Part shown: one piece after another, positions 11,472 through 34,804 of the stretch
Layout: every line of letters begins with the position of its first letter
How positions within the stretch are numbered: position 1 is the first letter of the stretch
From: Patescibacteria group bacterium
GTDB lineage: Bacteria > Patescibacteriota > Minisyncoccia > UBA6257 > 2-01-FULL-56-20
DNA length: 50,042 nucleotides
NCBI GenBank assembly: GCA_038058095.1
Contig: JBBUBW010000009.1
Coordinates: forward strand, 1 to 50,042
Direction of reading: 5' to 3'
Notes under the pieces: generated by a model
Database searches by the model: none
The model's input: only the letters and a program-made list of their open reading frames with translations
What the model was told of the DNA's origin: nothing
Position numbers and translations under genes: made by a program

Positions 11472-11602
11472 AATTACTAATTAATAAATTAATTTGTTAA
11501 TATTGTTAATGGGACAACTTTGGGGACAACTTTCCCAACCTCTTTTTAACCTTGTTTTTATTGTATTATTATCGCTCGCTAAAAATTATTTTCCCAAAGT
11601 CC

Positions 11603-11611
11603 TGTGGGTAA
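11603..11611. promoter_or_regulatory. DnaA-box-like 9-mer TGTGGGTAA (8/9 to TGTGGATAA)
   Basis: Single near-consensus box in the AT-rich dnaA-dnaN spacer. A tandem GGGACAACTTT x2 lies nearby at about 11511-11534. Confidence 0.3.
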
Positions 11612-11629
11612 GTTGGGGGAGCGAATTGC

Positions 11630-12991: not shown

Positions 12992-13176
12992 CAAGCTTAT
13001 TGTAGTCGCTATTTTTTCGAAGTCAAAGACCAACGTTTCGTTGAGTTGGGGAATACCTGTTGAAAACTATTTTTTAGGATTAATCCATTCGGTAATTTGC
13101 CAATCCGAGACTAATTGTAGTAGAATTCAAACTCAAGGTCACACACTAAAAAGAAAACAATTAAATCGCATTTATT

Positions 13177-13311
13177 ATGTCGCAGACTTACCAGCCAAAA
13201 AAAAGGAAAAGAGCCAAAACGCACGGTTTTAGGGCTAGACAAAGAAAGCCAGGAGGCCGGAAGGTACTAAGTCGGCGCCGAAACAAGGGACGAAAGAAAC
13301 TCGCCCTCTAA
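13177..13311 (+). CDS. rpmH: 50S ribosomal protein L34
   Basis: Hand translation [44 protein letters not shown] (44 aa). It is not in the ORF track because of its length. Confidence 0.9.
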
Positions 13312-13342
13312 ATTTTTCTTATCCCAACTCCATTTTGGTATG

Positions 13343-13471
13343 CCCCGTAGGAAATGGCGAGAAAATTCACAACATTTTTGAGCCAAGAGTCAAAAACTTC
13401 TAATGTATATAGCGGAATCCATTCTAAGGTCGGAATTAGCAATCACGAAAAATATTTTATTTCCTACGGGG
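13343..13471. repeat. CCCCGTAC-family long hairpin H3 (between rpmH and rnpA)
   Basis: Arms CCCCGTAGGAAAT (13343-13355) and ATTTCCTACGGGG (13459-13471) are perfectly complementary. The ends resemble those of the element at 31382-31511. Confidence 0.65.
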
Positions 13472-13472
13472 T

Positions 13473-13805
13473 ATGTTGTCTAAAAAATTTCGTCTTCCCG
13501 TAAAAGATTTTAGAAGCCAAAGGACTGCGTCCATTAAAACCCCGAGTCTCATCGTGCGGGTTTGTCCTAACCAGTTAAACCACAACCGATTCGCCGTGAT
13601 TATTAGCGCCAAGACCGAGCCTAAGTCTACTCGGCGGCACACAATCAAAAGAAAAATTATTTCTGTTATAGAAAAATGGCCAAACTTACGCCGAGACTTT
13701 CTCCTCTCCGTATTTCTTAGCACCAAAGATGTCTCTCTTGCCGATTTTAAAAAAACTATCCAAAAAGAACTAGAACAAATTATTCCAAAACTTTCCAATG
13801 TCTAA
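13473..13805 (+). CDS. rnpA: ribonuclease P protein component
   Basis: 110-aa basic protein in the conserved rpmH-rnpA-yidC order. It begins with a KKFRL motif. Confidence 0.85.
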   Translation: MLSKKFRLPVKDFRSQRTASIKTPSLIVRVCPNQLNHNRFAVIISAKTEPKSTRRHTIKRKIISVIEKWPNLRRDFLLSVFLSTKDVSLADFKKTIQKELEQIIPKLSNV

Positions 13806-14526
13806 TTTTTTTAACACCATTCTTTTTGAGCCCCTTTTTAACGCGCTGATTTTTCTTTATCAAACCATCGCCCTTAAAGATCTCGGGCTAGCCATTATTC
13901 TTCTCACCATTCTCATCCGCTTCATTCTCTATCCGGTTTTCCAAAAAAGCATCAAAGATCAGCGCGCCCTTCAAGAAATTCAGCCCAAACTCAAGAAGGT
14001 TCAAGAGGAACATAAAAAAGATCGAGTTAAGCAATCCGAGGCTATGATGGCTCTTTATAAAGAGCACAAACTAAATCCCTTTTCTCCATTTCTTACTCTC
14101 ATTATTCAACTCCCGGTTCTGATTACTCTCTATAAAGTTTTTAGAACCATTCTTATCCCAGATTTTTCTAAATATCTTTATAGTATTACCCCCATCCCCC
14201 AAGCCATCAATTATTCCTTTTTAGGCTTGATTAATTTAACCCAAAGTAATATCTTTATAGTTGTCTTAGCGGTTTTAGCCCAGTATTTTCAAGGAAAGCT
14301 AAGTCTTCCTAAGAAAACCAACACCGGGACCCTAAGCACTACCGAGAAGATGAGCCAAAAAATGGTTCTATTCGCCCCGGTTTTAACCGGCGTCGTTCTT
14401 CTCTCTCTGCCATCAGCCCTCGGGCTTTTTTGGACAATGTCATCGGTCTTTTCAATCTGGCAAGATTGGATCAGCCGCAAACATCAACATGGACAACTGG
14501 ACAACATTCGTAAAACAACTGATTGA
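13798..14526 (+). CDS. yidC: membrane protein insertase YidC (short form)
   Basis: 242 aa. The segments LAIILLTILIRFILYP...Q and LQEIQPKLKKVQEEHK...MMALYKEHKLNP are typical of YidC/Oxa1. Confidence 0.85.
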   Translation: MSNFFNTILFEPLFNALIFLYQTIALKDLGLAIILLTILIRFILYPVFQKSIKDQRALQEIQPKLKKVQEEHKKDRVKQSEAMMALYKEHKLNPFSPFLTLIIQLPVLITLYKVFRTILIPDFSKYLYSITPIPQAINYSFLGLINLTQSNIFIVVLAVLAQYFQGKLSLPKKTNTGTLSTTEKMSQKMVLFAPVLTGVVLLSLPSALGLFWTMSSVFSIWQDWISRKHQHGQLDNIRKTTD

Positions 14527-14929
14527 ATTGATGGGGTTCAAAGATTTTCGAGTCGACGCCGACTCAGGCGCCCAGCGGGGTGTGGTTTTTATTTACGACA
14601 ACCCCGACCTTATCAAAGAGAACTTGCCCGTTTTTGTGGAGGGAGTGAATCATTTTATCCAACTAATCGCTAGGAAAAATAATCAAGAGCCGGTTTTTTT
14701 CGATTTCAATAATTATCGCCAAGAAAGAGAGAATTTAATTACTGAGCTCGCCAGGGCGGCGGCCAAAAAAGTTATGGTCACAAGCGAAGATATTTCTCTC
14801 CCCGCCATGAATTCATACGAAAGGCGTCTCGTCCACCTAGCTCTCGCCATTCACCCAGAAGTGACTACCGAAAGTATGGGAATAAAACGTGAACGGCACG
14901 TGATAATTAAAAAAATAAAAGGGGACTAA
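14489..14929 (+). CDS. jag: Jag/KhpB-like R3H RNA-binding protein
   Basis: It sits after yidC. The C-terminal R3H-like segment is SYERRLVHLAL. Confidence 0.7.
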   Translation: MDNWTTFVKQLIELMGFKDFRVDADSGAQRGVVFIYDNPDLIKENLPVFVEGVNHFIQLIARKNNQEPVFFDFNNYRQERENLITELARAAAKKVMVTSEDISLPAMNSYERRLVHLALAIHPEVTTESMGIKRERHVIIKKIKGD

Positions 14930-14940: not shown

Positions 14941-16146
14941 TTAGTTGCTCTTAATAGGCGCAGAATAAAGCTTTCCGTCGAAACGGTTTATAAAGTAAAT
15001 TTTTTGCCCCACTCTTTTTAGGTTTGTAGCATCTATCTCATCTCCTACGAAAACCGGAATAATCTCACCGGTCGAGATTTTAATTTGGTGAATATTATCT
15101 TCGGTAAAAATTGCTTTTTTGTAATAATCGTCAGGCAAACTGTATCCCTTGAGCTGATTCTCGTCCACAGGGATAGCACAGTTCAAATATTCTTCTTTAA
15201 TAATTTGCGGGACGATGGTTTTTTTAGTTCCCGTCGCGACGGAGGTAGCGGTGACATTTCTAATTTCAAAGTAAAAAGCGCACTTAGAAGGGAGGGTCAC
15301 AAACGTGAATCGCCTCGCCAAAACTCCTTGGCGATTAATCAGTTTCAGTTGTCCGTCAGAAAGTTCAAGGGCCAAAGTTCCGCTCGCATTCCACATTATC
15401 TCAAGCCCTTTTTGGTTCTTAATAATCGGGGTTAAGGTTTTCTTTGAAAAATCAAAAACCCAAAGCGAGTTGGCAATTTGAGCGCTGGCCTTCTCGACTA
15501 GCCAAATTTCTTCCGGTCTTATCCACGTAAGATTTAAATCATTTGCGTGTAAAGAAGTAAATTCTTTCGGTTTGGCTGATTTCTGGGAAAGATCTAATGT
15601 CCCCAGTGTTAGCCCCTGAGCCGTTTTCGCTAGATAGGCAACTCGGTGATCCCCTGGCGCCCACGCCAAAGCTTGGATGTTTAAAGCAATCGGCATCCAA
15701 GTTTTACCGTCAATATCAAAAATGCTTGTTTGGGGATTTTCCGGATTACCAAATCTGGCGGCTACTATTTTGCCGTCAAACGAAAAAGATGCGTCTATTA
15801 AGCCATCAATCGCCGTTGAATTTATTGTTTTCGGCTCCTTTCCGCCCGCTTCGAAAATTTGTCCATCTGGTTGGACAAAAATAACTTTTTCTTGAGTATC
15901 AACAAAATAATCTTTTACCAAATTTGGCGCCACTTGGTTCGATTTTTGGATCAATCCTCCTAAAGAACCCTGTCCAGTACCCGCGGAAGGGGATTCTCCA
16001 CTGGTTCCATTTGGCAATGGACTCTGGTTATCGTCCGGGCTAACTGATTCTGGCGCAGTAGAGCTATTTTTTCTAAGTAAATAACCCCCAACCACCAACC
16101 CGGCTACTACTAGAACAATTATTACTAAAATTAAATATTTCTTCAT
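14941..16146 (-). CDS. membrane-anchored extracytoplasmic protein (hypothetical, beta-rich)
   Basis: 401 aa with an N-terminal TM anchor followed by a Ser/Pro/Gly linker. It is the last gene of the minus-strand T4SS-like operon. No family was recognised. Confidence 0.5.
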   Translation of the reverse strand: MKKYLILVIIVLVVAGLVVGGYLLRKNSSTAPESVSPDDNQSPLPNGTSGESPSAGTGQGSLGGLIQKSNQVAPNLVKDYFVDTQEKVIFVQPDGQIFEAGGKEPKTINSTAIDGLIDASFSFDGKIVAARFGNPENPQTSIFDIDGKTWMPIALNIQALAWAPGDHRVAYLAKTAQGLTLGTLDLSQKSAKPKEFTSLHANDLNLTWIRPEEIWLVEKASAQIANSLWVFDFSKKTLTPIIKNQKGLEIMWNASGTLALELSDGQLKLINRQGVLARRFTFVTLPSKCAFYFEIRNVTATSVATGTKKTIVPQIIKEEYLNCAIPVDENQLKGYSLPDDYYKKAIFTEDNIHQIKISTGEIIPVFVGDEIDATNLKRVGQKIYFINRFDGKLYSAPIKSN

Positions 16147-16149
16147 TTT

Positions 16150-17241
16150 TTATCTCAAGCAGAATTTAACACTCCCTCCTGATGGCGGAAGTTTACATGT
16201 AAGTTGAGTGCCATCACTAACCACTGGGCAAGAATTGGTGCTGGAGCAAGGCAAGCTACAAGAACCAGTCGAACACACATAAGGAGCGTCACACTTCTCG
16301 CTTTCTACAGGCGTGTTTTGACAACCACCTCCAAAAAACGGTAGGCATTGGCCGCCAGCTCCACAAGCGAGGTCGCCACCGCAGTCAGTCTGTGAGGTAC
16401 ACAAGCCTCCTCCCTCAGTCTTTGCGACACATTTTCCCGCAACACATCCCTGCGTGGTTGGGCTTGGGCAGTCTTCGCTAGTAAGACAAGTCCCACTTAC
16501 GACACAAATATTTCTTGGTTGAGAGCAAACAAGCCCGCTCCCACTTTGACATCCCCCATTTATGCAAGCAGCCCCAGCTGTACCGGTTTGTTTACATAAC
16601 CCATCCACGCAAGAGAGACTGTCGACGCTACCACAAGGAGTTGAGGCATCACATGTTTTTAAGATTTCCTTGCAAGATCCATCAATACATTTTTGAAACG
16701 ACAAATAAGGACAATCAGGAGTTGCTGTGCACCCTGCGGGTTTATAGCATCTATTATCGCTTGAGCATAAAAGACCAGTATTACATACGCTACCCCCTAA
16801 ACAGGGACTGTGTAATGTTCCCGGTACTTTAACTGTGATTTTGACGAGAGGTATTTTATCTAATGTTGGTAGCGACAAATTGGTTAATTTAGGATTTATA
16901 GTATTCAAAATTATAAAAGCGCCCGCTAAAAGCAAAAGTCCCAAGAGTGCCTGCTTGATCATATCTTTAGCGTCGCTTTGTCCCGAAGGATTATCAGCTG
17001 AAACCGTGTGTTTTATCGCCGCAAAAACAATAATCACAAAAGCCAAAAGCCCTCCCAGCATCAGCGCGAACTGGTAAAAATTACCTATAATATTAACCGG
17101 ATTTGGCTCCTCAACGGTCGCTGGGTTTGGTCCCGGAATACTAGGATTGATAGTGTAGGCCGCGGCCGGGTTTAAATAAAATCCAAAAAGTAATACCAAG
17201 CCAATCCCTAAATACAACCACTTCGTCTTTGAAATCTTCAT
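16150..17241 (-). CDS. VirB2/TrbC-like pilin module fused to a Cys-rich (32 Cys) C-terminal domain
   Basis: A signal-like N-terminus and two hydrophobic helices separated by a short polar loop (FALMLGGLLAFVIIVFAAI...ALLGLLLLAGAFIIL) match VirB2/TrbC pilins. The last ~215 aa contain 32 Cys in repeated DC-x6-7-C-x3-4-C units. Confidence 0.45.
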   Translation of the reverse strand: MKISKTKWLYLGIGLVLLFGFYLNPAAAYTINPSIPGPNPATVEEPNPVNIIGNFYQFALMLGGLLAFVIIVFAAIKHTVSADNPSGQSDAKDMIKQALLGLLLLAGAFIILNTINPKLTNLSLPTLDKIPLVKITVKVPGTLHSPCLGGSVCNTGLLCSSDNRCYKPAGCTATPDCPYLSFQKCIDGSCKEILKTCDASTPCGSVDSLSCVDGLCKQTGTAGAACINGGCQSGSGLVCSQPRNICVVSGTCLTSEDCPSPTTQGCVAGKCVAKTEGGGLCTSQTDCGGDLACGAGGQCLPFFGGGCQNTPVESEKCDAPYVCSTGSCSLPCSSTNSCPVVSDGTQLTCKLPPSGGSVKFCLR

Positions 17242-17248
17242 ATCTTTT

Positions 17249-17944
17249 TTAAAATCTTAGAGTTATATTTTTCGACGCCATTTCAAAAATATTTCTAGGG
17301 TTTTTTACATTTAAAGATATACTAATAGTCGTTCCTTGCACGGGTATTTGCCGGAAAGTCACATTCAGCACCTTCGGGTCCCCCGAGGCCTCCGGACTTT
17401 GGTCGTTTATTTTCCACTCAAAACCAAGATTATCAGGATTTTTCGTGTTAAAAAAATAAGGCAGTGCTTCAAACCAAACTCTGGAGTCCCGAAGCTTTCC
17501 TCCAGGGAAAGGGACGGGAATCACCACCTCGGGCTTCACTGAAAGAATCTCCACGCTTTTAATCAATGTTTGTCCCAAATAGTCGTTTACCGTGATTCGT
17601 GCTACCTGTCTGCCAACCCCGCTCGCTCGAAAAGTTATCTCCTGGAGTCCGGCGCCTCCTTTAAAAAAGTCGTCGTTTACATACCAATAAATATCATTTT
17701 TTGAAAGATTCACTATTCTTCCGCGGTCAATCATTTCAAAAGACACCGTTATTGAGGATTTATCCGTCGGCAATATTTTACCGGAGAATTCAGCCGGAGC
17801 ATAAGAGCGAGCCTTCCATGTAAACATAAATTCCGGCTCCGTCGCTTGAGCACGCACATTTATTAGCCCATAAAACAAACTGCCGGCTAAAAAAATTATT
17901 GCCAGAGCGGTTCTAAAAAATTGTTTAAAAAGCACCGCTTTCAT
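17249..17944 (-). CDS. secreted hypothetical protein
   Basis: 231 aa with a signal-peptide-like N-terminus ending ...VRAQA. It lies in the operon. Confidence 0.5.
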   Translation of the reverse strand: MKAVLFKQFFRTALAIIFLAGSLFYGLINVRAQATEPEFMFTWKARSYAPAEFSGKILPTDKSSITVSFEMIDRGRIVNLSKNDIYWYVNDDFFKGGAGLQEITFRASGVGRQVARITVNDYLGQTLIKSVEILSVKPEVVIPVPFPGGKLRDSRVWFEALPYFFNTKNPDNLGFEWKINDQSPEASGDPKVLNVTFRQIPVQGTTISISLNVKNPRNIFEMASKNITLRF

Positions 17945-18094
17945 TTCTCCCGTTAATTATACCATTTTTGTTTTTTACTCCCAACAAACTCCGTAGGTCC
18001 GGTTTTGAACACCCACTCCCCAGGAGGAGTTTTTCAATTCATTTTCATTTTGACGCGCGCTTTTAGCTTTACATTTTACGTTCTTACGCCCCCC

Positions 18095-18751
18095 CTAGGC
18101 CGCTTGTTTGTACTGTTTTGCTTTTTCTTCATCCGATTCCGGCGACATAATATCTATTACTTCCGCAATCGATTCTTTTTTAACCCCGAGTTCCTCTTCT
18201 GTGACCTTATCTTTGGCTTTTCTCTCCTCTGTTTCCTGGGTTTGCCCCTCACCCCCTTCTCCTTCGAAAGCCGGGGAAACCGCGCCTCCAGGACGGCCTT
18301 CGCGAGTGCGCACCGGTAATGGCCCCCCTCCTTCTCCCTCGACACCCGACGGCATCGCTTGGCCCGCCTTTATTTGACCCCCCGCCTCCTTACCACCTAC
18401 TTTACCCTTCACTCCACCCTTTGCCGACGCCATCTTCTGCGCCGCGGTGGTTAATTTTGTTGGATGTCGGTCGAGGTAAACCGTCACTCCAAACCCAATA
18501 GTTTTAAGGGGCAAACCGCCAAGCCATGGGATAAGTTCTAATATCCACATCGCTACATACCAAGTCTGCCTAACTCCTCTAAACCAATAGTAAATTGCTA
18601 TTACACTGGCAAAAGTATCTAAAATCCAAAAATCGTCAAGAGCGAAAAAAAGCAGGACTAATTCGATTGCGTCAAAAAATAAGCAGATACCTCCAATAAG
18701 TATTACCTCTACATCAGAAATTTTCGGTTGTGGCTTCTCTTCCTCGTTCAT
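18095..18751 (-). CDS. membrane protein with a Gly/Glu/Lys-rich tail (hypothetical)
   Basis: 218 aa. The N-terminal half has about 3 hydrophobic segments and the C-terminal half is low complexity. Confidence 0.45.
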   Translation of the reverse strand: MNEEEKPQPKISDVEVILIGGICLFFDAIELVLLFFALDDFWILDTFASVIAIYYWFRGVRQTWYVAMWILELIPWLGGLPLKTIGFGVTVYLDRHPTKLTTAAQKMASAKGGVKGKVGGKEAGGQIKAGQAMPSGVEGEGGGPLPVRTREGRPGGAVSPAFEGEGGEGQTQETEERKAKDKVTEEELGVKKESIAEVIDIMSPESDEEKAKQYKQAA

Positions 18752-18859
18752 GATAGTTAGCTACAGAATACAGATGGCACCAGCCTAATATTCTAGAGAT
18801 TCTGCTATCTATTTTACATTCGTATATCCGTACTTTTTCCGTATTCCGTAGCCATATTT

Positions 18860-20572
18860 CTACGTTTTCTGCTCTAATAACTGTTGCGGGTTGGTGGTTA
18901 TAACCTGGTCTTCAAAATACGAAGCAATAATTTGAATTGCTACATGTTTTCGTCCGGCAAAAAACAATCCTGTCCCCACCTCTGCCGAAAGAAGCATATT
19001 TTTCTCCGCCTCGGTTAATCCGAAAGCTTTAGCCACCACATCAATTGTTGCTGGGGCCTGCTTCAAAAGCAATTGAATCGAAGAATTAGTAATAATCGGC
19101 CGTCCATAAGGAGATCGTAGAAAGTCCTCTACGTCTTGGGTAATCGTCGAAACTCCCAAAAAGTACTTTCTCGCCCGCTTTACCAGCCCAAATAAAAACG
19201 TGGCGCTGTCTTCATACTTCATCATCCACCACGCCTCATCAATAATTAAAAGTCTTTTCTTAAGTTGGGCCCGCGTGAGATTCCAAATAAAATTCAAAAT
19301 AATATACATCGCAATCGGCCGCAATTCTTCCTCCAAGTCTCTAATCGAGAAAGCGATGAGACGATTGCCAATGTCGATATTAGTCGCTTGGTTCACGAAC
19401 CCGGCGAAACTGCCTTTTGTGTATTTATACAAACGCTCTGCCATTCCCTTGCCTCCCTCCAAATTGCGTAATATCGTTTCAAGATCTTCTAGCAGCGGCG
19501 GGGAAGCTCCGGAAAAGTCTTCTCCAGGTACAATTTCGCGAGAGGCGTAAGTTTCGGTAATTGCTCGGTCGAGTAAAGCGTCCTCTTCCGCTGAAAGCTT
19601 GCCTAGCATCAATTTTAAAAGACCAGCCAAATTAACAATATGGGACCTAAGTACGTCCGACGGAGTTTCTCCCTCGGGCACAACCGGCACATCAAAAGGA
19701 TTAATATGTTCGTGCGAAGAAAGGGAGATATTGAAAAAACTTCCTCCAAACGCCTCGGTCATTTTCTGATATTCGTTTTCAGGGTCGATAATTAAAATAT
19801 CGACTCCAAGCATCAAATATCTGATAATCTCAAGCTTGGTAGCGTATGATTTTCCCGAACCGGATTTAGCGAAAACCACTTGGTTGGCATTTTCCAAAGA
19901 GAATCGGTCGAAAATAATCAAATTATTATTATGACGGTTGATGCCGTACATAATGCCTTGATTTGAGTTCAAGTCCTCCGATACAAACGGGAAAAACGAA
20001 GAAACCGGTCCCGAATTCATTGGTATTGTAACGTCAATTTTATCTTGCGCGAGCGGCAAAACCGAAAGCAGTCCCTCTAGTTGCTGGAAGAGGGCCGGTT
20101 TCATATAGATTAATTTCGCCTCCAAAATTGACTGGATCTTGCTTTCTAGTTTTGAAAGTTCTTCAAGATTGTCGCCGTAAATTGCGAGATAAACGCCAAC
20201 GCTAAAAAGTTTTTCTTGAGCTTGCTGTAGAGAATCGCGCAGACTCTCTACGTCTTGAAGCGCCGTCTCAAGTAGCGGATCTCTTACCAGCCCTTTATCT
20301 TGCTGGTCGCTGATTTGCGACTCTATTTGAGCTGATTTTTTGCGAAGGTTCTTAAGAGCCATCCCTGTGTCGATCGGATTAATAAAAGTGGAAACATCAA
20401 AAATATTCGGCAGGTTTATGAGCGGTTCGAACCACCCCGTCGAAAGATATCTGGGGTAAGAAAAGAAAAAAAACGTTTTCACATGCTTATCGCCAATCTT
20501 AAGGTAGTTCGAGCTTACCTGAACTCCGGCCGGCGCGATAATTTTTTTTGTGTCTTTAAAATCTTCCGCCAT
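18860..20572 (-). CDS. virB4: VirB4/TrbE-family T4SS ATPase (C-terminal ATPase part)
   Basis: Walker A AKSGSGKSY and Walker B LLIIDEAWWMM. Length and motif order match Gram-positive-type VirB4/TcpF/PrgJ ATPases. Confidence 0.8.
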   Translation of the reverse strand: MAEDFKDTKKIIAPAGVQVSSNYLKIGDKHVKTFFFFSYPRYLSTGWFEPLINLPNIFDVSTFINPIDTGMALKNLRKKSAQIESQISDQQDKGLVRDPLLETALQDVESLRDSLQQAQEKLFSVGVYLAIYGDNLEELSKLESKIQSILEAKLIYMKPALFQQLEGLLSVLPLAQDKIDVTIPMNSGPVSSFFPFVSEDLNSNQGIMYGINRHNNNLIIFDRFSLENANQVVFAKSGSGKSYATKLEIIRYLMLGVDILIIDPENEYQKMTEAFGGSFFNISLSSHEHINPFDVPVVPEGETPSDVLRSHIVNLAGLLKLMLGKLSAEEDALLDRAITETYASREIVPGEDFSGASPPLLEDLETILRNLEGGKGMAERLYKYTKGSFAGFVNQATNIDIGNRLIAFSIRDLEEELRPIAMYIILNFIWNLTRAQLKKRLLIIDEAWWMMKYEDSATFLFGLVKRARKYFLGVSTITQDVEDFLRSPYGRPIITNSSIQLLLKQAPATIDVVAKAFGLTEAEKNMLLSAEVGTGLFFAGRKHVAIQIIASYFEDQVITTNPQQLLEQKT

Positions 20573-21286
20573 TTATTTTTTTTCTTCGCTAGTTTTAGTC
20601 TCCATGCGCTCTGAGGGGATAGCCGACATCTCCTTTTCCACCGTTTCCGGGTTATAAAAATTATAAAAAAGTTCAATGAGCGCTTGGTTGTCTAGTGGCA
20701 CCGCCTCAATGCCGAATGTAGCCAGTCCCTCAACCACTTGGGCTGTTCTCTGGGTGATTTGGTTTAAGTTCTCCTGGAATTCCAAATCAGCCGCCTTCTC
20801 TTCTTTCTTTTCTTTTTCCTCTTTTCCCCCTTTGTTTAAAAAAGGAAATAGCTTAGAAATTCCGGAAATAGTGTCCCTGGTTGGGAGCTTACTCGAAGAA
20901 AAAGGAATTATCACCAAAAAAGTTTTCTCCATAATCGCATTGTCTTTCACAAACCCCCTCACGTATTGAATATATTCAGAGATTTGGCTCTGGATCAAGG
21001 CTGACGGCTCCCGCTCCCTTCGAAGTTCGAGGCCAGCTAAATATTTCTCAATGTTAATTTTTCTGGAATGGATCATAATCTGAATCGGGAAATCTAAACC
21101 ATTTAAAAAGTTCTTGTAGCCATTAGAAATAATATCTAGTTCCGTTTCGGCCATTAACGCCGTATTGATGCCCGAAACCATCACCACCTGCCTTAAGGCG
21201 CCGCTTTTCAAAATCGCCACCCCTTCTTTAATTTCTTCGATATCAACTAAATCCTGAGTATTTGCTAGTTGTTTATTGAGGGCCAT
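20573..21286 (-). CDS. VirB4 N-terminal-domain-like protein (split VirB4)
   Basis: 237 aa. Its stop abuts the ATG of the ATPase ORF. The pattern ...IEEIKEGVAILKSGALRQVVMVSGIN... resembles the N-terminal domain of VirB4. Combined, 237+570 aa is about the VirB4 size I recall (~800 aa). Confidence 0.45.
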   Translation of the reverse strand: MALNKQLANTQDLVDIEEIKEGVAILKSGALRQVVMVSGINTALMAETELDIISNGYKNFLNGLDFPIQIMIHSRKINIEKYLAGLELRREREPSALIQSQISEYIQYVRGFVKDNAIMEKTFLVIIPFSSSKLPTRDTISGISKLFPFLNKGGKEEKEKKEEKAADLEFQENLNQITQRTAQVVEGLATFGIEAVPLDNQALIELFYNFYNPETVEKEMSAIPSERMETKTSEEKK

Positions 21287-21296
21287 ATTAATGAAA

Positions 21297-21326
21297 TTTT
21301 AGGTGTTAGGTTGTGGGTTTTAGAAC
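21297..21326. repeat. AGGT-rich block E1 (TTTTAGGTGTTAGGTTGTGGGTTTTAGAAC)
   Basis: Inverted with respect to E2. About 24 of 29 positions match the reverse complement of 21773-21803. Confidence 0.7.
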
Positions 21327-21363
21327 TCTATTAAGTAAATTATACGCTAAAAAATAATTTTTC

Positions 21364-21732
21364 TTAAGTTCTTTCTCTCAACTTCAGCTCTAGCTTAGAT
21401 ATAAGAACATTTAGCATTTTTTGAACCTCCAATAGCAAGTTCTCGGTCTCTGTATAATTTAAATTCGAGTAAAGTCTTCTTGCAATAATAATCTGAGTTT
21501 CTAATTCTGACGCCGATCCTTCTGATACGCGGAGAAAGTGTAGGTATTCAGGCAAACCCTTCCTACGTGAACCTTCTGCTATATTTGACGGGATAGACAC
21601 TGCCGCTCTGCGCATTTGCGAGACCAATCCATATTGTTCGTCCTTCGGAAAACTAATAGTTAATTTATATACTTGTTCTACTAAAGTAATTGCCTTTTGC
21701 CAAACAATTAGTTCTTTATAAGACTTTAGCAT
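21364..21732 (-). CDS. four-helix-bundle protein (23S rRNA intervening-sequence protein family, TIGR02436-like)
   Basis: 122 aa. The segment YKELIVWQKA...L...MRRAAVSIPSNIAEG...SELETQ is the canonical family pattern. Confidence 0.85.
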   Translation of the reverse strand: MLKSYKELIVWQKAITLVEQVYKLTISFPKDEQYGLVSQMRRAAVSIPSNIAEGSRRKGLPEYLHFLRVSEGSASELETQIIIARRLYSNLNYTETENLLLEVQKMLNVLISKLELKLRERT

Positions 21733-21772
21733 TTTTTCTACAACCTGCCACCCAGTATTAACCCAACTTTTT

Positions 21773-21807
21773 TATCTATAACCTACAACCCATCACCTAA
21801 AACCTAA
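21773..21807. repeat. ACCT-rich block E2 (TATCTATAACCTACAACCCATCACCTAAAACCTAA)
   Basis: Near-identical to the block at 29453-29486. It is the inverted partner of E1. Confidence 0.7.
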
Positions 21808-22316
21808 TAACGATAATCCACCCTCCTGGCCGCCTGCCTCTCTCCTGTAATTTTCTCAAAAACCTGATAACGCTCTTTGATTTTTTGCGAAAAATCTTGA
21901 GCGTTAATTAGACCTTGCTTAGTGCCAGTCTGAAGTTTCTGCCACGTATTTTTTAAGGACGCGCCCGCGATAATGCTTTCGAGCGAAAATCCAGGTTTCG
22001 CAAGCTTCATAATTTCCTCACTTTTCGTTACTTGAGGGTTCTCCGGCTGCCAAACAAAAGTTTGGGGTTGCCAATAAAATTTCATGCCCGATAAAAGAAT
22101 TTTCGAAAGCGGCCGGCCGTTAATTTTTATAAATGCCATCGAGAGACCGAGTCCCCCGACAAAAAGCATAATAATCAACCATAACCAAAAAACTATAATG
22201 AAAAAAAGAGCAAAACCAACCGCCGCCACAGCGCCAAGGTAAAAAAACTGCTTAAGTGAGAGGGGGCCGATAATCTTATCCTCCGTCTCTATAAACTGAG
22301 GAACTTGGAATTGCAT
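21804..22316 (-). CDS. PrgI family (VirB3-like) T4SS membrane protein
   Basis: 170 aa. The N-terminus MQFQVPQFIETEDKIIGPLSLKQFFYLG followed by two TM helices matches the PrgI-family pattern. Confidence 0.6.
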   Translation of the reverse strand: MQFQVPQFIETEDKIIGPLSLKQFFYLGAVAAVGFALFFIIVFWLWLIIMLFVGGLGLSMAFIKINGRPLSKILLSGMKFYWQPQTFVWQPENPQVTKSEEIMKLAKPGFSLESIIAGASLKNTWQKLQTGTKQGLINAQDFSQKIKERYQVFEKITGERQAARRVDYRY

Positions 22317-22373
22317 GTTAAAAAATTAAATATAAAACATCAAAAATTAAAATGACAGATTAAATATCAAAAA

Positions 22374-22745
22374 TCACTTCCGCCCCTTCAAGGTTAGTAT
22401 ACTCGAAGCAATAATTTTTGATATCTCAATAATTTCTTCTAGTAGTTGGTCTAATGCCGCCTTGTCGCCCTTTCCAGTATCTCTCAGCAACGTTAACCAA
22501 ACCTTAGATTCATTCGCGGATTTTAAAGAATAATTAAAAAAATTAGTAAAATCCCTCCGCGAGCTTGCTGAAGATGCCTCTATGTAATTAGCCAAAACAC
22601 TGGTACCGCTTCGTAGGAGTTGCTTCCCCATAACTTCGCAAATAGAATCCTTAGGCAACTTATCAATAAATTTAACCAAATCTAAAGCCCAAGAGTAAAG
22701 GCGTTTCTTGAAATCATTTTTAAATTTTGAGTTGTCATTTTTCAC
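22374..22745 (-). CDS. four-helix-bundle protein (23S IVS protein family)
   Basis: 123 aa with ...GKQLLRSGTSVLANYIEA...F...SLKSANESKVWL. The GTG start overlaps the upstream stop (GTGA). Confidence 0.8.
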   Translation of the reverse strand: MKNDNSKFKNDFKKRLYSWALDLVKFIDKLPKDSICEVMGKQLLRSGTSVLANYIEASSASSRRDFTNFFNYSLKSANESKVWLTLLRDTGKGDKAALDQLLEEIIEISKIIASSILTLKGRK

Positions 22746-24457
22746 TTTGATTTTTCATCTTTTATTTTAGTTAGTGAACTCAAATCAATCATTTCTTCGC
22801 TTGGCGGCAAATTTGTTTTTTGGGGTTCAGGTGGAATCTCTTTCTCTCTAATATCAAAGGTTTTTTGTGGAGGCATGTTTGGAGTAATTTGAGGGAACGG
22901 TTGGGTGGTTATTTTAGGTTGGGGAATTGTTTCCGAAACGGGTCTCGGTTGGGGCGAACGGGGAATTGGCGGAGTAGGAGGGATAAAAGATATTTCTTTT
23001 GATGAGGTTTCTGGTTTTTTTGAAAAAATAGAGCGGAGCCAGCTGGAATGCTTTTCCTCCGGCTTTGAAAACATCGAATTAAGATTCGCTGGCCTGCCCT
23101 CTGGAGGCATCAAGTCGGTGCCATAATTTACTGTCGCTATTTTTTGCGGTCCTTGATTTTTTTGAGGCGCAGGCATTTGAGGGAAAACTGGTGCTGTGGG
23201 CGTTTGCACCCTTACTGGACTCGGCATTGGCATCTCTGGTCTTACAACTGGGGAGGGGGGTGGAAATGACGGCGCTTTAGGTACTGAAGCGCCGGGCGGG
23301 TTCTCGAGGGGTGTCTGAAAAGTATTGTAATGAACCACCCTCGGAGGTTTTATTACATCTGTTTTAGCTAAAGTTTCCGGCAATTGTTTTCCTCCTCCAA
23401 ATTCAACTCTTACTGCGAGCCGGCCCTCGTTTTTAGAAGTAGGGGAGCTAAATTGCGAAGACGGCGGTTCTAAATGAAATGATGACATTGGTCTAATCGG
23501 TTCCTGATCTGATTCTTGATGGATAATCACCGGCCCAGTTCCATAGTCTAAAGAACCAGCCGGCTTTTCTTGCATTGGGGGCCTAGGAGCTTGGAATGGG
23601 GGAGTCGTAGACAGTTTCGGTGTAAGGGAACTTGGAAACGGCGGGGCGGTCGCAGTTTTAGTAGTTTCTTTTTTCTTCAAAACATCCACTAACTCCGCTC
23701 CTGAATGCTCGAGCTTTTTAATCTCCTCTACAATTCCCATCGGGCTCTCGCCGGTATCTTTAAAGGTATTAACTGGTGGCCTTATCTCGGTTGTGGCTGG
23801 TCGGGCTGGCGCGCTAGGCGAAGACGGTCTAAAAATCGGCGCCGGTTTCGGCGGTTCCATTTCTCTAACTGCCATTCGGTTCGATCCCAAATCTCCTAGC
23901 CCTTGCCCACTAAGTTCTTCCATCATTTTAGGTCTCGGTATCCCTCCGGCTTGAGGCGGTTGCGGCGCTGCGGACGGTTTCCATTGAGGCGTGGCCGGTT
24001 TCTCGGCTACAGTTTTTTTCTGCGCCAAATCAGCATCCTCCGCAATCATCACCGGCCGAGGCGGCATCGGCTTTGATGATTCAGGACTTAATATTCTTGG
24101 CTTATCCGAAGCTCCTATAATTGGTCTATAATTCTTTTCAAGCTCTTCTTTCAAAGGGCCAAAGACTTTACTGTCAATTTCATCAGCTAATGATTTCGAG
24201 AGTTTATGGTTATTCAAAACTAAAGCCTCGTCAATTTCTCTCGCCAAATCTTCAAGATGGATAAACCCAAATATAATCAAAGCCACTAGTTGCTGTATTA
24301 TTAATATCTTTTCTTCGTCGACAAGGTGGTGATTTTGGCAGATCTTTACCACTGCCTGATAAGATTGCTTGTTACTCAAAAGATCTCGAAGTTTCGCCGG
24401 TAGCGAATCAAATCTTTTCTTTAATTCATTTTCAGTTATTAGTTCTAATTGAATCAT
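22742..24457 (-). CDS. proline-rich low-complexity protein with a ~120-aa structured N-terminus (hypothetical)
   Basis: 571 aa. After about residue 120 the sequence is dominated by P/S/T/A/Q. Confidence 0.5.
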   Translation of the reverse strand: MIQLELITENELKKRFDSLPAKLRDLLSNKQSYQAVVKICQNHHLVDEEKILIIQQLVALIIFGFIHLEDLAREIDEALVLNNHKLSKSLADEIDSKVFGPLKEELEKNYRPIIGASDKPRILSPESSKPMPPRPVMIAEDADLAQKKTVAEKPATPQWKPSAAPQPPQAGGIPRPKMMEELSGQGLGDLGSNRMAVREMEPPKPAPIFRPSSPSAPARPATTEIRPPVNTFKDTGESPMGIVEEIKKLEHSGAELVDVLKKKETTKTATAPPFPSSLTPKLSTTPPFQAPRPPMQEKPAGSLDYGTGPVIIHQESDQEPIRPMSSFHLEPPSSQFSSPTSKNEGRLAVRVEFGGGKQLPETLAKTDVIKPPRVVHYNTFQTPLENPPGASVPKAPSFPPPSPVVRPEMPMPSPVRVQTPTAPVFPQMPAPQKNQGPQKIATVNYGTDLMPPEGRPANLNSMFSKPEEKHSSWLRSIFSKKPETSSKEISFIPPTPPIPRSPQPRPVSETIPQPKITTQPFPQITPNMPPQKTFDIREKEIPPEPQKTNLPPSEEMIDLSSLTKIKDEKSK

Positions 24458-24466
24458 TTTTTAAAA

Positions 24467-26056
24467 TTAGCTTTCTAGTTCTTTCCAAATCGTGGGTATC
24501 ACCACGCAACTAGTACAATCACGTATCGGTTTCTTAGTGCTCCTCTCTACGTGATGGCAATTTTGGCATTCCCAATCTCTAACTTTATTACCTTTAAACA
24601 ACCCCGAACCTTCTTTCATTCCTTTATACGCCGCGCCGCCAAAAGTAACTTTCGCGCTATCTTTGCCGAATTGAGTTAAATCATTAAAAGTTTCATTAGG
24701 CAATATCTTTACCGATGCCCGATACGCCACTCTTTGCACCGGTGCGGTAAACTTTCTCCCAAACCTCCCAAGCGCTGCTCTTATCCCCGGCGCTGGGGGC
24801 CCCATTGTTGGAGGCGCCGGGGGTTTAGTCAAAAACCTAGCTATCCCCCCCCCAGTTTTCGCCCCCGCCCACTTCCTAGCACCCTTAGAAAAACCCTTCA
24901 TCGCTCCCATCCCCGCCTTTGCCCCAACAATACTTAACTGATTCGCCACATAAAGTCCTCCCATCGTAATCCCCACAATAATAATCATATTCATAAAACC
25001 CTGGATGGGTGCCGAAAGAGGGCTCCCTAGGAAACTAGAGATTCCGGCGAAAATGTTGTTTTTACCCGGACTGGAAAAGGCGGTCAAATCCATAGTCCCA
25101 CCTTGCCCCAAACTCATTTCTCTGCTGGTTAAAATCGCTAAATAAAGGAAGAAAACCACCAGTGGCGCGAAGAAGACCTGTTTCAAAAATTGGCTCCACC
25201 ATTTTGACCAATTAGAACTAAGTCCTGGGAAAATCCACAAAAGCCAGGCAAACGGCATAACAATCAAAAGGATGCCCAGAGCCACATACCGGTAGAGGAG
25301 CATAAATATAAACACCGCTAAAGTAATTACTATAGCCGCGAGCGAAAAAACCACAAAAGCCAAAGAAGCAATCGGTAGAAGTAACTTCCCTAGCCCTTCT
25401 CCGTTCGCCGCCGCAATTCCCGATAGCTTTTCCGTATCCTCGACGGTTAAACTATTCAGCCCATTTTCAAGCATAATTCCCTTTTGCGGGTTAAACGCCC
25501 CGGCTAGTCCGGAAGCGAAAGCGTTGAATTGCGAACCGCTTTCCGTCGGGTTCACTTGTCTTAAGAAGTAAAGCGTAAATTGGTCTGCGAAATTAATAAT
25601 TGCTCCCGCGAAAACCAAACTGAAATTTACCAAAAGCGCCGCCACCACCAGTTTCCAGAGAATCTGCTTAATGCCGTATCCCGACCAGCGCAAAATTGTG
25701 GCGATGGCGATTACTATTATCGCCGCCGTAAACCCTAAATTGGCGATTGAAAGCGCCACCGGAAATCCAAAATGAACCGGCGGCGAGTTTACTATCTGGG
25801 TGTTGATATTTAAGACTACCTCAATTAGCCACGCCTCAACCCCCACTACTAGTCCCATCACGCTGCTGACAATATAGGAAATTCCGAAAACAAGCTTCCC
25901 GACTACCGTATAAGCTAAATCGCTAAACCAACTGGATTGGGCGTGAGTTACCTGCGGCACAAGCAAAAGCGCCAAAACTAAAACTCCAAAAATCACTCGC
26001 CATTTCGTAGGAATTTTAATCAATCGGTCAATAATTTTTTCCTTCAAAAATTTCAT
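24467..26056 (-). CDS. polytopic membrane protein, VirB6/TrbL-like by context, with a C-terminal CxxC...CxxC tail
   Basis: 529 aa with about 8 hydrophobic segments. The tail reads CQNCHHVERSTKKPIRDCTSC. The assignment rests on topology and neighbourhood only. Confidence 0.4.
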   Translation of the reverse strand: MKFLKEKIIDRLIKIPTKWRVIFGVLVLALLLVPQVTHAQSSWFSDLAYTVVGKLVFGISYIVSSVMGLVVGVEAWLIEVVLNINTQIVNSPPVHFGFPVALSIANLGFTAAIIVIAIATILRWSGYGIKQILWKLVVAALLVNFSLVFAGAIINFADQFTLYFLRQVNPTESGSQFNAFASGLAGAFNPQKGIMLENGLNSLTVEDTEKLSGIAAANGEGLGKLLLPIASLAFVVFSLAAIVITLAVFIFMLLYRYVALGILLIVMPFAWLLWIFPGLSSNWSKWWSQFLKQVFFAPLVVFFLYLAILTSREMSLGQGGTMDLTAFSSPGKNNIFAGISSFLGSPLSAPIQGFMNMIIIVGITMGGLYVANQLSIVGAKAGMGAMKGFSKGARKWAGAKTGGGIARFLTKPPAPPTMGPPAPGIRAALGRFGRKFTAPVQRVAYRASVKILPNETFNDLTQFGKDSAKVTFGGAAYKGMKEGSGLFKGNKVRDWECQNCHHVERSTKKPIRDCTSCVVIPTIWKELES

Positions 26057-26081
26057 TTCTCGAATAGGGCTTTAACTAAAT

Positions 26082-28559
26082 TTACCAAGGGCCATCACAC
26101 TTATTTTGCGGGTAACTTCTCAAAGGATTCCAGGGGATAGGATTCCCCCTACTATTGTAAATACTTTCATAATTGCCAAACGTCTTATCCAGCTCTCCAT
26201 TTCGAGTTCTAGCTGTGTCTATATTTAAAGTCAGCATCGTTAAATCAAAATCACTATCCAGATCTCGGGTCAGCTCGGCAAGTACCAAAGTATCAGTCGC
26301 CATGCTAACTTTCACTGCTAAATCAGCCAGCTTATCAAGAGAAGAACTCGCGTCGGCTCTTTCTTTAATTGAAGCAACATAACCGGCTTGGACGTTCGCC
26401 ATCGCCGTGTTTACAGCCAATAATTTGTCAGTCGTGAAGTTCGTATTTAGAGGATCAAAGTAAGAATGGCAAGAATTTAATACGTCAGAAATCACGCTAA
26501 TAGTTGCCGTCGCATTGTTTATATAATAATTATCGAATGTTATTAGCTGTCTATATAGAGTTTGGTATGACGAAATTGATATCAGTAACGTGCTACTGCT
26601 TAAAGCCGTGGTTGCGTACATCGCCGCAACGTCTTTAGCGCTTTTTACACAGTCCGAGTATTCAGTCGAAGAAGTGGCGTACATCGCACAAGTTTCTTTA
26701 ACGTAGTCGGCAGATGGAGGTTTCGTGGTAGTCGCTATAAAGCCCGGTTCTTCTCCTTCAGAATTCGTCGCTTTCTGGAAAACCTTCTGAATCAGCGAGT
26801 CAATAAAGGCTGTCGCTATTGTTATCATATCATTGGCATTTACTAGCCAGTCATCATGAAGCCCCGTGGCCTTAGCCAAAGTTTCACCCACTATCTTTCC
26901 TGGCGTGGTATCCTCCCATCCATCCTGAGGGCAGGTTTTGAAAGTATGGTCAGATTTTACTGGGCCTATATAGTCCATGCCGGCTTGTTTCGCGTAAGCT
27001 TTAGCATCAGCTACTAAATCAGGGCTGGTTCTAATATCCTCAAGGGAATAAGCATCTTCTAGATTTAATGGCGGATTCGTTGGGTTTTTACACACTCTCG
27101 TCGCTAAGAATCCTGCCGCATTCGCCACCCTTTGCCCTTGCGCCGCTTGCGCCCCTTGCGCTTTAGTGAGCGCGATATCGCTAAGCGTGATCATTACTCC
27201 GAAAGGATTATTTTGAGGGGTAATCACTTGAAAATAATCCTGCCACCCGCCCTTATCGAAACTCTTATAAAATTCTTTAACATTCTCCACCGCTTCAGTA
27301 AGAGTGCAGGTTGTCCGTTCGGTCATATCGGCTAATCTCGGGTTGGATGGACGCTTAAATGCCAGCGTAATAAATGGCTGAATTGAAGCGCAGACTTGAG
27401 GCAGGTGTTTATAAATCTCCGCGCCTATGGCGGCATCGAATGTCGATCTCGCTGTCCCGATTAAGTCTTGTGCAAATCTCGGTTGTCCTTTCCCCTTTAC
27501 CCAATTTTGCGTTGCATTAACTATTTGATTTATTAATTTTTTCTTCAACTTTTCTTTTATCACGCCTTGCACCCACTCCCAAATCTTTCTGGCTAAGTTA
27601 ACTGGATCTATGACAATATCTCCAAAGCCAAAAATACCGTAAGCTGTTTTTGGTAAGAATAAATCCTTTACCAAAGAAAACGGCCCCGAAATTTTATTAG
27701 CGCTTGATAACTTCCCGAGTGAGTTAGCTTTATTTAATTCGTTCCCAAAATTTCGTATCGCATCATTATAATCTTGCTCTTGCAGTTGAAGAACCAAGCT
27801 TGATTTCAGTGGGTCGTTCTCTTCCTGGCTAAGCTCCAAAGCTTGTTTTTGATAGAGAGTTAACTTGAGCAAACTTTTATGAAAGTTTGCGAGCGCCTCT
27901 GGCACTTCAAGGGCTTTGATTTTTAAAAAAGTTTGTTCTAGAACTAACGCTACCGAACTAATCGAAGTCGGAGTGGGATCGCTAGCTAAGACATCGGACA
28001 CCCCCGAGCGGACATAGTTCTCATCCAAAATAGAATTTAATTTATCAGTATAGTTTTTAATATCTTCCGGTCCATAATTTTTTAGTACATCGATGTCTTC
28101 GCTTTTTGCAATAAGTTCTGCTCTAGTGGCGTTTACTTGATTAGCAATTTCTTGAGTATTAGCAACACCCGCAGTATAACCTTCCGCATTTTTTGACACT
28201 TCATTCACTTGGGCGTTTATATCCGCTGAATTTTGGGGATCTAGTTGTATCATCCCCTCCGCTAGCTTCTGCCCAACATTTTCAGTTAAATTCGAAGGAT
28301 CGCTAACCGGCGGCAATAAATCGCCGTCAGTGTTCGCTTGAGCTAGCGAATTGGAAGATTCACTCCCCGGCACCGATTCCACGTAAGCCTGCCCGCCGAA
28401 TGCCGACTGATTTTGTCCCAAAGTACCGTTCCCTTCGCTCACCTCCATCTCCGACGGAGATAATTTTGAGCCGCCTGAATTTGATAAAAAGAAAGCCGCC
28501 GAGCTTGCGATAAATGCCACTGCCAAAAATCCCGTGATCAGCCGCTTAGGATCAACCAT
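26082..28559 (-). CDS. large extracytoplasmic protein (hypothetical), first gene of the operon
   Basis: 825 aa with an N-terminal anchor (ITGFLAVAFIASSAAFFL). No family was recognised. Confidence 0.5.
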   Translation of the reverse strand: MVDPKRLITGFLAVAFIASSAAFFLSNSGGSKLSPSEMEVSEGNGTLGQNQSAFGGQAYVESVPGSESSNSLAQANTDGDLLPPVSDPSNLTENVGQKLAEGMIQLDPQNSADINAQVNEVSKNAEGYTAGVANTQEIANQVNATRAELIAKSEDIDVLKNYGPEDIKNYTDKLNSILDENYVRSGVSDVLASDPTPTSISSVALVLEQTFLKIKALEVPEALANFHKSLLKLTLYQKQALELSQEENDPLKSSLVLQLQEQDYNDAIRNFGNELNKANSLGKLSSANKISGPFSLVKDLFLPKTAYGIFGFGDIVIDPVNLARKIWEWVQGVIKEKLKKKLINQIVNATQNWVKGKGQPRFAQDLIGTARSTFDAAIGAEIYKHLPQVCASIQPFITLAFKRPSNPRLADMTERTTCTLTEAVENVKEFYKSFDKGGWQDYFQVITPQNNPFGVMITLSDIALTKAQGAQAAQGQRVANAAGFLATRVCKNPTNPPLNLEDAYSLEDIRTSPDLVADAKAYAKQAGMDYIGPVKSDHTFKTCPQDGWEDTTPGKIVGETLAKATGLHDDWLVNANDMITIATAFIDSLIQKVFQKATNSEGEEPGFIATTTKPPSADYVKETCAMYATSSTEYSDCVKSAKDVAAMYATTALSSSTLLISISSYQTLYRQLITFDNYYINNATATISVISDVLNSCHSYFDPLNTNFTTDKLLAVNTAMANVQAGYVASIKERADASSSLDKLADLAVKVSMATDTLVLAELTRDLDSDFDLTMLTLNIDTARTRNGELDKTFGNYESIYNSRGNPIPWNPLRSYPQNKCDGPW

Positions 28560-29452: not shown

Positions 29453-29486
29453 ATCTATAACCTACAACCTAACACCTAGAACCTAG
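29453..29486. repeat. ACCT-rich block E4 (TATCTATAACCTACAACCTAACACCTAGAACCTAG)
   Basis: It lies 4 nt upstream of the rsmA start on the coding strand and overlaps the helicase stop. Confidence 0.7.
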
Positions 29487-31741: not shown

Positions 31742-32320
31742 ATGGATCTCCAACCTCTTCAAACCAACAAATATAGCGGGAAAACAAAGGCTTATTCCCT
31801 AAAAACCTACCATTCCTTAGTCAATTGGATAACTTCCGGGCTAACCCTTAGGGAATGGTATCTGCACGCCCAAACCTACGGCACCACCTCCTTCGTAACC
31901 AACCGACTTATTTTCAGTTGTATTCTCGGTTTGCTAGTACCTCTAGTTCTTATCGGCTCCATAAACGGGCGCCTAGAAGATAATCTCATTTATCTTCACA
32001 ATTTAGGCCGAGTGGGCATTATCCCCAACCGACAAATTGGAACCACTAACCTTCCTCCTATTTTCGCAGCCATCGCTGAATGCGAATCCGGCGGCTCTCA
32101 ATATGATTCTTATGGTCAAGTGGTAAGAGGGCGAGTAAATCATCACGATGTTGGCCTTTACCAAATTAACGAAGTCATCCACCAAAACGCCATCGCCCAA
32201 ACCGGAGTTGATATCTATAACGAAGAAGGGAATGCCCAGTTCGCTCGCTATCTTTATGAAGCCGAAGGGCTTTACCCTTGGCGATCTTCCCAATATTGCT
32301 GGTCTCGATATTTAAATTAA
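31742..32320 (+). CDS. lytic transglycosylase-like protein (Rpf/SLT-type catalytic motif)
   Basis: 192 aa. The AECESGG...DVGLYQIN motif resembles transglycosylase-like/SLT domains. There is one internal hydrophobic segment. Confidence 0.55.
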   Translation: MDLQPLQTNKYSGKTKAYSLKTYHSLVNWITSGLTLREWYLHAQTYGTTSFVTNRLIFSCILGLLVPLVLIGSINGRLEDNLIYLHNLGRVGIIPNRQIGTTNLPPIFAAIAECESGGSQYDSYGQVVRGRVNHHDVGLYQINEVIHQNAIAQTGVDIYNEEGNAQFARYLYEAEGLYPWRSSQYCWSRYLN

Positions 32321-34651: not shown

Positions 34652-34692
34652 ACAAACGTTCTTTGATAATAAAATATTCTAGGTTCTAACTT

Positions 34693-34743: not shown

Positions 34744-34804
34744 GAAGAGCGAGCTGCGTCGCGCCAGTTGCGCGATATATTTCAAATACCACAGGAGGTA
34801 TGCG

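Follow-up and report, generated by a model that had tools for sequence, protein, structure and literature searches.

A very probable host-interaction type IV secretion system beside the replication origin of a Paceibacteria chromosome

A type IV secretion system (T4SS) belongs to the small number of machines known to be required for epibiotic life in Patescibacteria, a group that makes up a large share of bacterial diversity. In Southlakia epibionticum, the T4SS encoded by SEML1_0006-0019 was reported by Wang et al. (2023) to be essential for epibiotic growth by transposon sequencing (Tn-seq), and was described as having Gram-positive-type subunits and essential pilins, without a recognizable relaxase or coupling protein (PMC10633639). 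The account of Quinonero-Coronel et al. (2025), a survey of 2,474 virB4 genes, describes a clade related to the mating-pair formation (MPF) class MPF_FATA that has TrsD, PrgI, VirB6 and VirB2-like pilins and in which relaxases are rare and type IV coupling proteins (T4CPs) unlinked, and names dnaA, dnaN, ksgA, rnpA and rpmH as T4SS neighbors in Paceibacteria (PMC12102498). A 2025 review lists the Patescibacteria system as a new T4SS type (PMC12857230), and tubular structures have been seen at a parasite-host interface (bioRxiv 10.64898/2026.06.21.733656). Here we describe a cluster of twelve open reading frames (ORFs) at positions 14941-28559, minus strand, of a 50,042-nucleotide stretch (the window; contig C9, GenBank JBBUBW010000009.1) from a Paceibacteria (Patescibacteria, or Candidate Phyla Radiation, CPR) metagenome-assembled genome (MAG; GCA_038058095.1) of 758,531 bases (0.76 Mb) in 50 contigs, 96% complete. 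Judging from sequence, this locus is very probably a chromosomal Patescibacteria T4SS in the Paceibacteria arrangement beside the replication origin, serving epibiotic host interaction and not conjugation. As a kind it is already known from the 2023-2025 papers (PMC10633639, PMC12102498, PMC12857230).

The recognizable T4SS components, with ORFs numbered g01 to g12 in the order of transcription, are as follows:

18860..20572, minus strand: g08, VirB4 ATPase, the signature motor (NCBIfam conju_CD1110, E 1.9e-113)
20573..21286, minus strand: g07, TrsD-like protein, the N-terminal part of VirB4 as an ORF of its own (NCBIfam TrsD, E 1.3e-7)
21804..22316, minus strand: g05, PrgI/VirB3-like small membrane protein (PF12666, PrgI)
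24467..26056, minus strand: g02, polytopic membrane protein, putatively VirB6/TrbL-like, that ends in a CxxC...CxxC tail (hydrophobic profile and orthologues)
16150..17241, minus strand: g11, VirB2-like T4SS pilin module with a Cys-rich domain (PF18895, T4SS_pilin)

The g08 product scores 380.2 bits against conju_CD1110 (cut-off 325), matches the Pfam families P-loop_TraG (3e-27), AAA_10 and DUF87, and carries a Walker A motif, AKSGSGKS, as read in the sequence, and a Walker B motif, LLIIDE. Its relatives in 80 species genomes share 57-86% identity with it; the best ones are all Patescibacteria MAGs, the closest labeled Paceibacterota, Parcubacteria, Harrisonbacteria, Kaiserbacteria and similar. 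By this family match, g08 is assigned as a VirB4 ATPase of the Gram-positive type (MPF_FATA-like, CD1110 family). Synteny was examined by tblastn of the window proteins against 80 loci of other species with VirB4 identities in the same 57-86% range, many of these loci being incomplete, and profile searches among the same 80 loci raised the per-gene counts over those from tblastn. The g07 gene adjoins virB4, has an orthologue in 78 of the 80 related loci, and its product also matches positions 98-215 of the VirB4_plasma model (1.8e-5). Since six relatives (L010, L013, L025, L026, L027 and L029) have the two parts fused in frame, as 768-794-aa ORFs, and a poorly conserved linker is where the break falls, the TrsD/VirB4 split is regarded as natural. 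The g05 product, with one strong hydrophobic segment and orthologues in 75 of the 80 loci, scores 39.1 bits against PF12666 (cut-off 27).

The two remaining components are a polytopic protein and a pilin. Eleven overlapping hydrophobic windows, forming ~7-8 distinct segments, were found in g02, and profile searches place an orthologue in 49 of the 80 loci. Among 31 positional orthologues scanned, TrbL_4 was matched in two (best 9e-7) and TrbL in two (best 6e-6); because only the orthologues and not g02 match these families, the VirB6-like call for g02 is indirect. The C-terminal end of g02 (window 24467-24600) reads CxxC-x15-CxxC after a Gly/Ala/Pro-rich basic linker, and many relatives have orthologues of 650-1,000 aa in which the C-terminus is much extended. 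The g11 product is the sole confident pilin in a scan of the genome, scoring against PF18895 (cut-off 26.6) 28.6 bits when the window is scanned and 32.9 bits when the genome is. Its pilin module (residues ~49-115) is fused to a ~230-aa domain that carries the 32 Cys residues of the protein. The N-terminal pilin module is conserved in the orthologues (loci L001-L077), and their tails are hypervariable, mostly Cys-rich and unalike, 0 to 360 aa long, with mostly even Cys counts of 4-16. In one orthologue (L029:12140-12952) the tail reads like a putative peptidase M23 domain.

An earlier note on this DNA, made from the letters alone, had described a twelve-gene T4SS-like operon of mostly abutting minus-strand genes with a VirB4 ATPase, a separate VirB4 N-domain ORF, a PrgI/VirB3-like protein and a VirB2-like pilin with a Cys-rich domain. 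These four assignments are upheld, as is the layout, and Pfam and NCBIfam profile scans found no relaxase or VirD4 domain among the ORFs. Its VirB6-like polytopic protein keeps the polytopic profile and gains TrbL-type matches in orthologues, although g02 itself has none. Its operon of twelve is reduced to ten conserved genes, with the two genes that it called four-helix bundles, in line with their family match, being accessory cassettes and not machine parts.

All twelve ORFs are intact and were recovered by the ORF listing at the expected coordinates and lengths, with gaps of -4 to 25 nt for most of them: 25 nt between g01 and g02, 9 nt between g02 and g03, an overlap of 4 nt between g03 and g04, direct abutment of g07 and g08, 7 nt between g10 and g11, and 3 nt between g11 and g12. 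Wider gaps of 57-150 nt flank g09 and both four-helix-bundle genes (g04 and g06). A scan for consensus promoters and terminators returned counts equal to the shuffled expectation and delivered no operon boundaries; we therefore infer a single operon from spacing and synteny only. The T4SS genes, virB4 included, are each present in a single copy in the genome. Judged by their occurrence in relatives, the ten conserved genes are the core of the cluster, and g04 and g06 lie outside it.

The composition and site of the locus agree with the Patescibacteria-clade T4SS as the cited accounts describe it: an MPF_FATA-type VirB4, a separate TrsD-like protein, PrgI/VirB3, a putatively VirB6-like protein and a VirB2-like pilin are found here too, as are the lack of a relaxase (here, of the four Pfam families searched), the unlinked coupling homologues and the position beside dnaA, dnaN, ksgA, yidC and jag. 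Some differences from these accounts were also observed. The T4SSs of Saccharimonadia and Microgenomatia are described with arrays of 2-11 short pilins, whereas here one pilin gene is fused to a Cys-rich domain; here no peptidase or lysozyme gene directly follows virB4, in contrast to the published Patescibacteria T4SS, and the two cassettes are inserted.

Among conjugative systems, the closest resemblance is to the Gram-positive MPF_FATA T4SSs (CTn2 CD1110 type; pGO1 TrsD/TrsE; pCF10 Prg), with which the locus shares the CD1110-family VirB4, PrgI, a polytopic, putatively VirB6/PrgH-like protein and a single-membrane envelope lacking the VirB7/9/10 outer-membrane core, and in the case of pGO1 also the separate TrsD-like N-terminal part. 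In contrast to these systems, the locus has no relaxase, adjacent coupling protein, recognizable VirB1-type hydrolase, VirB8-like protein or PrgB-type adhesin; a VirB2-like pilin, which they lack, is present here, and the locus belongs to the chromosomal core, whereas theirs are on plasmids or integrative and conjugative elements (ICEs). Like Bordetella Ptl, Brucella VirB, Helicobacter ComB and Sulfolobales Ced, it would be a VirB4-driven non-conjugative machine, and some of those also lack VirD4 in the locus; they are diderm or archaeal systems with other accessory parts, and the likeness is limited to VirB4.

The shared conjugation-type parts (a VirB4 of the CD1110 conjugal ATPase family, TrsD, PrgI and TrbL) raise the question of a Firmicutes-type ICE, or its decaying remnant, that lies near the origin by chance, and base composition is uninformative on this point. 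We regard this explanation as extremely unlikely. All ORFs are intact, no coupling protein was found in the cluster, and no integrase was found among the scanned ORFs of the window. No protein of the genome matches the relaxase-related Pfam families PF03432 (Relaxase), PF08751 (TrwC), PF01076 (Mob_Pre) and PF02486 (Rep_trans), a search of four families that leaves MOBC, MOBH and MOBM outside. The order uvrD-ksgA-g01-g02-g03-g05-g07-g08-g09-g10-g11-g12-jag/yidC-dnaA-dnaN was observed wherever the DNA of a related locus extends far enough. Other species, with VirB4 identities as low as 57%, share both this order and the housekeeping flanks, which points to long vertical inheritance under selection. 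The core genes are thus inherited vertically in a fixed order between ksgA and jag/yidC/dnaA, and the shared order and flanks across Paceibacteria species identify the locus, on comparative grounds, as a vertically inherited core machine and not a mobile element. The synteny comparison that the earlier note had proposed therefore bears out its view of a core chromosomal, origin-proximal context. Its reading of a non-conjugative pilus, adhesion or delivery apparatus is likewise supported, by the conserved order, the housekeeping content of the window, the four-family relaxase search and the published account; it amounts to a correct rediscovery of the published system.

The absence of a coupling protein has to be put in the context of the whole genome. 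Pfam and NCBIfam profile searches found no relaxase or VirD4 domain among the twelve ORFs, in line with the earlier note, and no coupling protein was found in the cluster or the window; but three VirD4-like ATPases are encoded on other contigs, where they sit among housekeeping or competence genes:

C4:24155-26026: VirD4-like ATPase of 623 aa with TrwB_AAD_bind, TraG-D_C and a C-terminal zinc finger
C50:15803-18184: VirD4-like ATPase of 793 aa with one N-terminal hydrophobic segment
C25: VirD4-like ATPase, partial copy

VirD4-like genes, one to four in each, occur in 30 of the 31 genomes searched (own included), which is consistent with the 5,713 unlinked T4CP homologues reported in the survey account (PMC12102498). 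The protein on contig C4 is apparently soluble, no N-terminal hydrophobic stretch having been noticed on reading, and its gene lies in the order T4CP-trmD-comEC (C4:22106-26026). The same order was found in nine of 20 related loci, all from one taxonomic family (including L083-L085, L090, L092, L095, L096 and L098). This hints at a possible role for the C4 paralogue in DNA uptake instead of in the T4SS.

These observations lend some weight to a second explanation, in which the machine imports nucleic acids in the manner of Helicobacter ComB or Sulfolobales Ced, and DNA or RNA of the host or the medium supplies nucleotides or genes; the unlinked VirD4-like ATPases would act in it together with ComEC. 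Besides the three ATPases and the zinc-finger protein that adjoins trmD and comEC, it could draw on the similarity of the g08 VirB4 to the NCBIfam models CedB and CedD, the placement of T4SS loci of the class ABY1 with comF, recG and radA, as reported in the survey account (PMC12102498), and the lack of nucleotide synthesis in Patescibacteria, one representative of which feeds on host RNA (bioRxiv 10.64898/2026.06.21.733656). However, the CedB and CedD similarity is weak, with scores far below the cut-offs, and the T4CP-comEC linkage is confined to one family, with trmD standing between the two genes. In Southlakia, as summarized in PMC12857230 from PMC10633639, deletion of comEC ends competence and not viability while the T4SS is essential, so that essentiality does not act through ComEC-dependent transformation; and the Southlakia t4cp homologue is described as not essential (PMC12102498). 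An import machine is therefore considered unlikely.

The cluster also encodes a set of conserved partners outside the recognized components:

26082..28559, minus strand: g01, the first gene of the cluster, whose 825-aa product has a single hydrophobic segment at its N-terminus
22742..24457, minus strand: g03, 571-aa protein with a conserved N-terminal domain and a variable proline-rich tail
18095..18751, minus strand: g09, small membrane protein with a conserved ~105-aa domain and a variable Gly/Glu-rich tail
17249..17944, minus strand: g10, putatively exported 231-aa protein with tandem Ig-like domains (N-terminal hydrophobic segment and profile)
14941..16146, minus strand: g12, N-terminally anchored TolB-like beta-propeller (strong N-terminal hydrophobic segment and profile)

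The labels "secreted" and "anchored" for proteins of the cluster are based solely on N-terminal hydrophobic segments. None of these five proteins has a counterpart among the components named for the Patescibacteria T4SS in the cited accounts (PMC10633639, PMC12102498). Profile searches allow fold assignments for g10 and g12. The g10 profile matches Ig-like domains of phage T4 Hoc (5vf3, E 1.4e-4) and a cell-surface protein (7biz, E 1.6e-3), and the gene was detected in 66 of the 80 loci by profile search. The g12 profile matches TolB structures (7mx5, E 2e-10); its gene is present in 54 loci, and the protein carries an invariant Cys pair, C289 and C323.

For g01, g03 and g09, profile searches of Pfam and the Protein Data Bank (PDB) gave nothing credible; matches to DUF4141 (0.023) and TraL (0.037) were too weak to use. 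The g01 protein has no sequence match in Pfam, NCBIfam or PDB, and its conserved core, residues ~325-625, defines a large uncharacterized family. Hidden Markov model (HMM) searches found g01 in 42 of the 80 loci, always between ksgA and the VirB6-like gene where tblastn places it. In a set of 1.84 billion proteins clustered at 50% identity, the core profile recovers 6,716 cluster representatives at E<=1e-3; with the limit set to E<=1e-30 it recovers 4,389. A word-indexed search with g01 alone returned only itself, and with the alignment 14 matches, all unnamed or hypothetical. The conserved residues of the family include W, F, G, N, a TPG motif and three Cys; because no D, E or H is conserved at >=80% among 196 members, a role as a VirB1-type hydrolase is unlikely. 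An AlphaFold2 (AF2) model of the core reached a predicted local distance difference test score (pLDDT) of 70.7 and gave no Foldseek match in PDB at E<=0.001. Some g01 orthologues carry PKD domains, and some family members end in them. In a phylum-wide scan, whose first-look filter may miss distant members, the core was found in six of 100 evenly drawn genomes besides its own, mostly in ~280-aa ORFs; such distant ~280-aa members are present in other Patescibacteria classes.

The N-terminal domain of g03 (~108 aa, helical by the look of the alignment) occurs in 52 of the 80 loci, between the VirB6-like gene and PrgI wherever tblastn places it; the tail is Pro-rich (15.9% Pro), and the protein has neither a Pfam or PDB match nor an N-terminal signal-like segment. 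The g09 domain, in which about three stretches are hydrophobic, bears the motif E.IP...LP..T and matched no Pfam family. An iterated HMM search detected it in 58 of the 80 loci, and in loci oriented on VirB4 the ORF starts directly after that gene.

A working model would have VirB4, together with TrsD, dock through PrgI onto the VirB6-like channel in a single membrane and power both the assembly of a pilin-based tube or fiber and the passage of macromolecules. The g01 protein, the tandem Ig protein g10, the TolB-like propeller g12 and the Cys-rich tail of the pilin would form the wall-spanning, host-contacting part. Such a machine would serve epibiotic host contact and macromolecule transfer, not the conjugation of a plasmid or ICE, and the form favored is a conduit that depends on contact and either exports proteins or takes up material from the host. 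Adhesion, export and import are inseparable from sequence alone. It is possible, though doubtful, that g01, g03, g09, g10, g12 and the hypervariable Cys-rich pilin tails constitute a Paceibacteria-specific outer module that replaces the VirB8, VirB1 and adhesin functions, with the pilin tail as the recognition determinant that sets host range.

The same surface components could be read more narrowly, as a pure adhesion or pilus-assembly apparatus in which VirB4 drives only a Cys-rich pilin fiber that holds the host and no substrate is translocated. The single pilin with its large, hypervariable external tail, the Ig-like and propeller surface proteins, the lack of a coupling protein in the operon and the possible T4SS pili seen at the host interface (bioRxiv 10.64898/2026.06.21.733656) all fit this reading. 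Yet Patescibacteria already adhere by type IV pili (PMC12857230, citing Xie 2022), the conserved VirB6-like channel protein points to translocation, and among the orthologous pilins some lack a tail altogether; we consider adhesion alone quite improbable.

Several observations weigh against the interpretation of the locus as a host-interaction T4SS. The operon yielded no VirB8-like or VirB1-like component, and five of the ten conserved genes are without an assigned role. The TrsD match of g07 lies under the curated cut-off, and g02 itself matched no family, VirB6 included, in the profile searches. The three VirD4-like ATPases leave DNA handling possible.

The two genes outside the core are the following:

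22374..22745, minus strand: g04, 23S_rRNA_IVP four-helix-bundle gene (PF05635, 4.6e-19)
21364..21732, minus strand: g06, 23S_rRNA_IVP four-helix-bundle gene (PF05635, 1.6e-35)

No counterpart of g04 was found in the 80 related loci, and g06 has counterparts in four of them, at differing positions and not in the closest relatives. Inverted repeats flank g04 at 22322-22380 and 22710-22768 (59 nt, 73% complementary) and g06 at 21297-21324 and 21775-21802 (28 nt, 86% complementary), and further copies of g06 are present in the same genome (C28:6252-6479 and C43:32679-32930). Because the closest relatives lack them, inverted repeats bracket them and g06 is multicopy, both genes are interpreted as accessory cassettes inserted between T4SS genes and not as machine parts; they look like small mobile cassettes.

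The locus adds no new principle, and the published picture is confirmed in one more Paceibacteria genome. Its value is a cleaner Paceibacteria parts list, in which ten conserved genes are set apart from two inserted cassettes, with the folds of g10 and g12 as additions. The residual interest is in the variable Cys-rich pilin tails and in the conserved partners g01, g03 and g09, which current libraries cannot name and which, g01 with its very large family included, lend themselves to structural and genetic study.

The genomic surroundings of the cluster comprise these features:

28675-29448, minus strand: ksgA (RrnaAD, 1.9e-51), upstream co-directional neighbor
29483-31357, minus strand: uvrD/pcrA (UvrD-helicase, 3e-81), upstream co-directional neighbor
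10359..14929: origin-region flank with dnaN, dnaA, an ORF at 13473-13805, yidC and jag (Pfam matches for dnaN, dnaA, yidC and jag)
31742..32320, plus strand: SLT_3 lysozyme-like gene (PF18896), a possible VirB1-type helper

The order uvrD-ksgA-g01 recurs in many related loci, and the jag/yidC-dnaA-dnaN flank is kept beside g12 in relatives. The assignment of the neighbors dnaA, dnaN, yidC, jag and ksgA is by Pfam matches. The SLT_3 gene was listed in the earlier note as a lytic transglycosylase near the operon. The gene scores 27.0 bits against PF18896, exactly at the threshold of 27; it was found in five of the 31 genomes searched (own included) and has no tblastn counterpart in the 80 loci; it was accordingly rejected as the conserved VirB1 partner of the T4SS.

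The rest of the window is housekeeping in content, with ruvA, ruvC, yebC, a class A penicillin-binding protein, a ComM-like ATPase, RNase Y and sugar-nucleotide enzymes. The large ORFs scanned in the window yielded neither an integrase nor another mobile-element domain, save the reverse transcriptase of a retroelement. The latter belongs to a diversity-generating retroelement at window 34623-38699 (RVT_1 at 37651-38568), ~6 kb from the cluster. A membrane protein of the Phage_holin_4_2 family (7.9e-19) is encoded at window 40726-41082, amid housekeeping genes.

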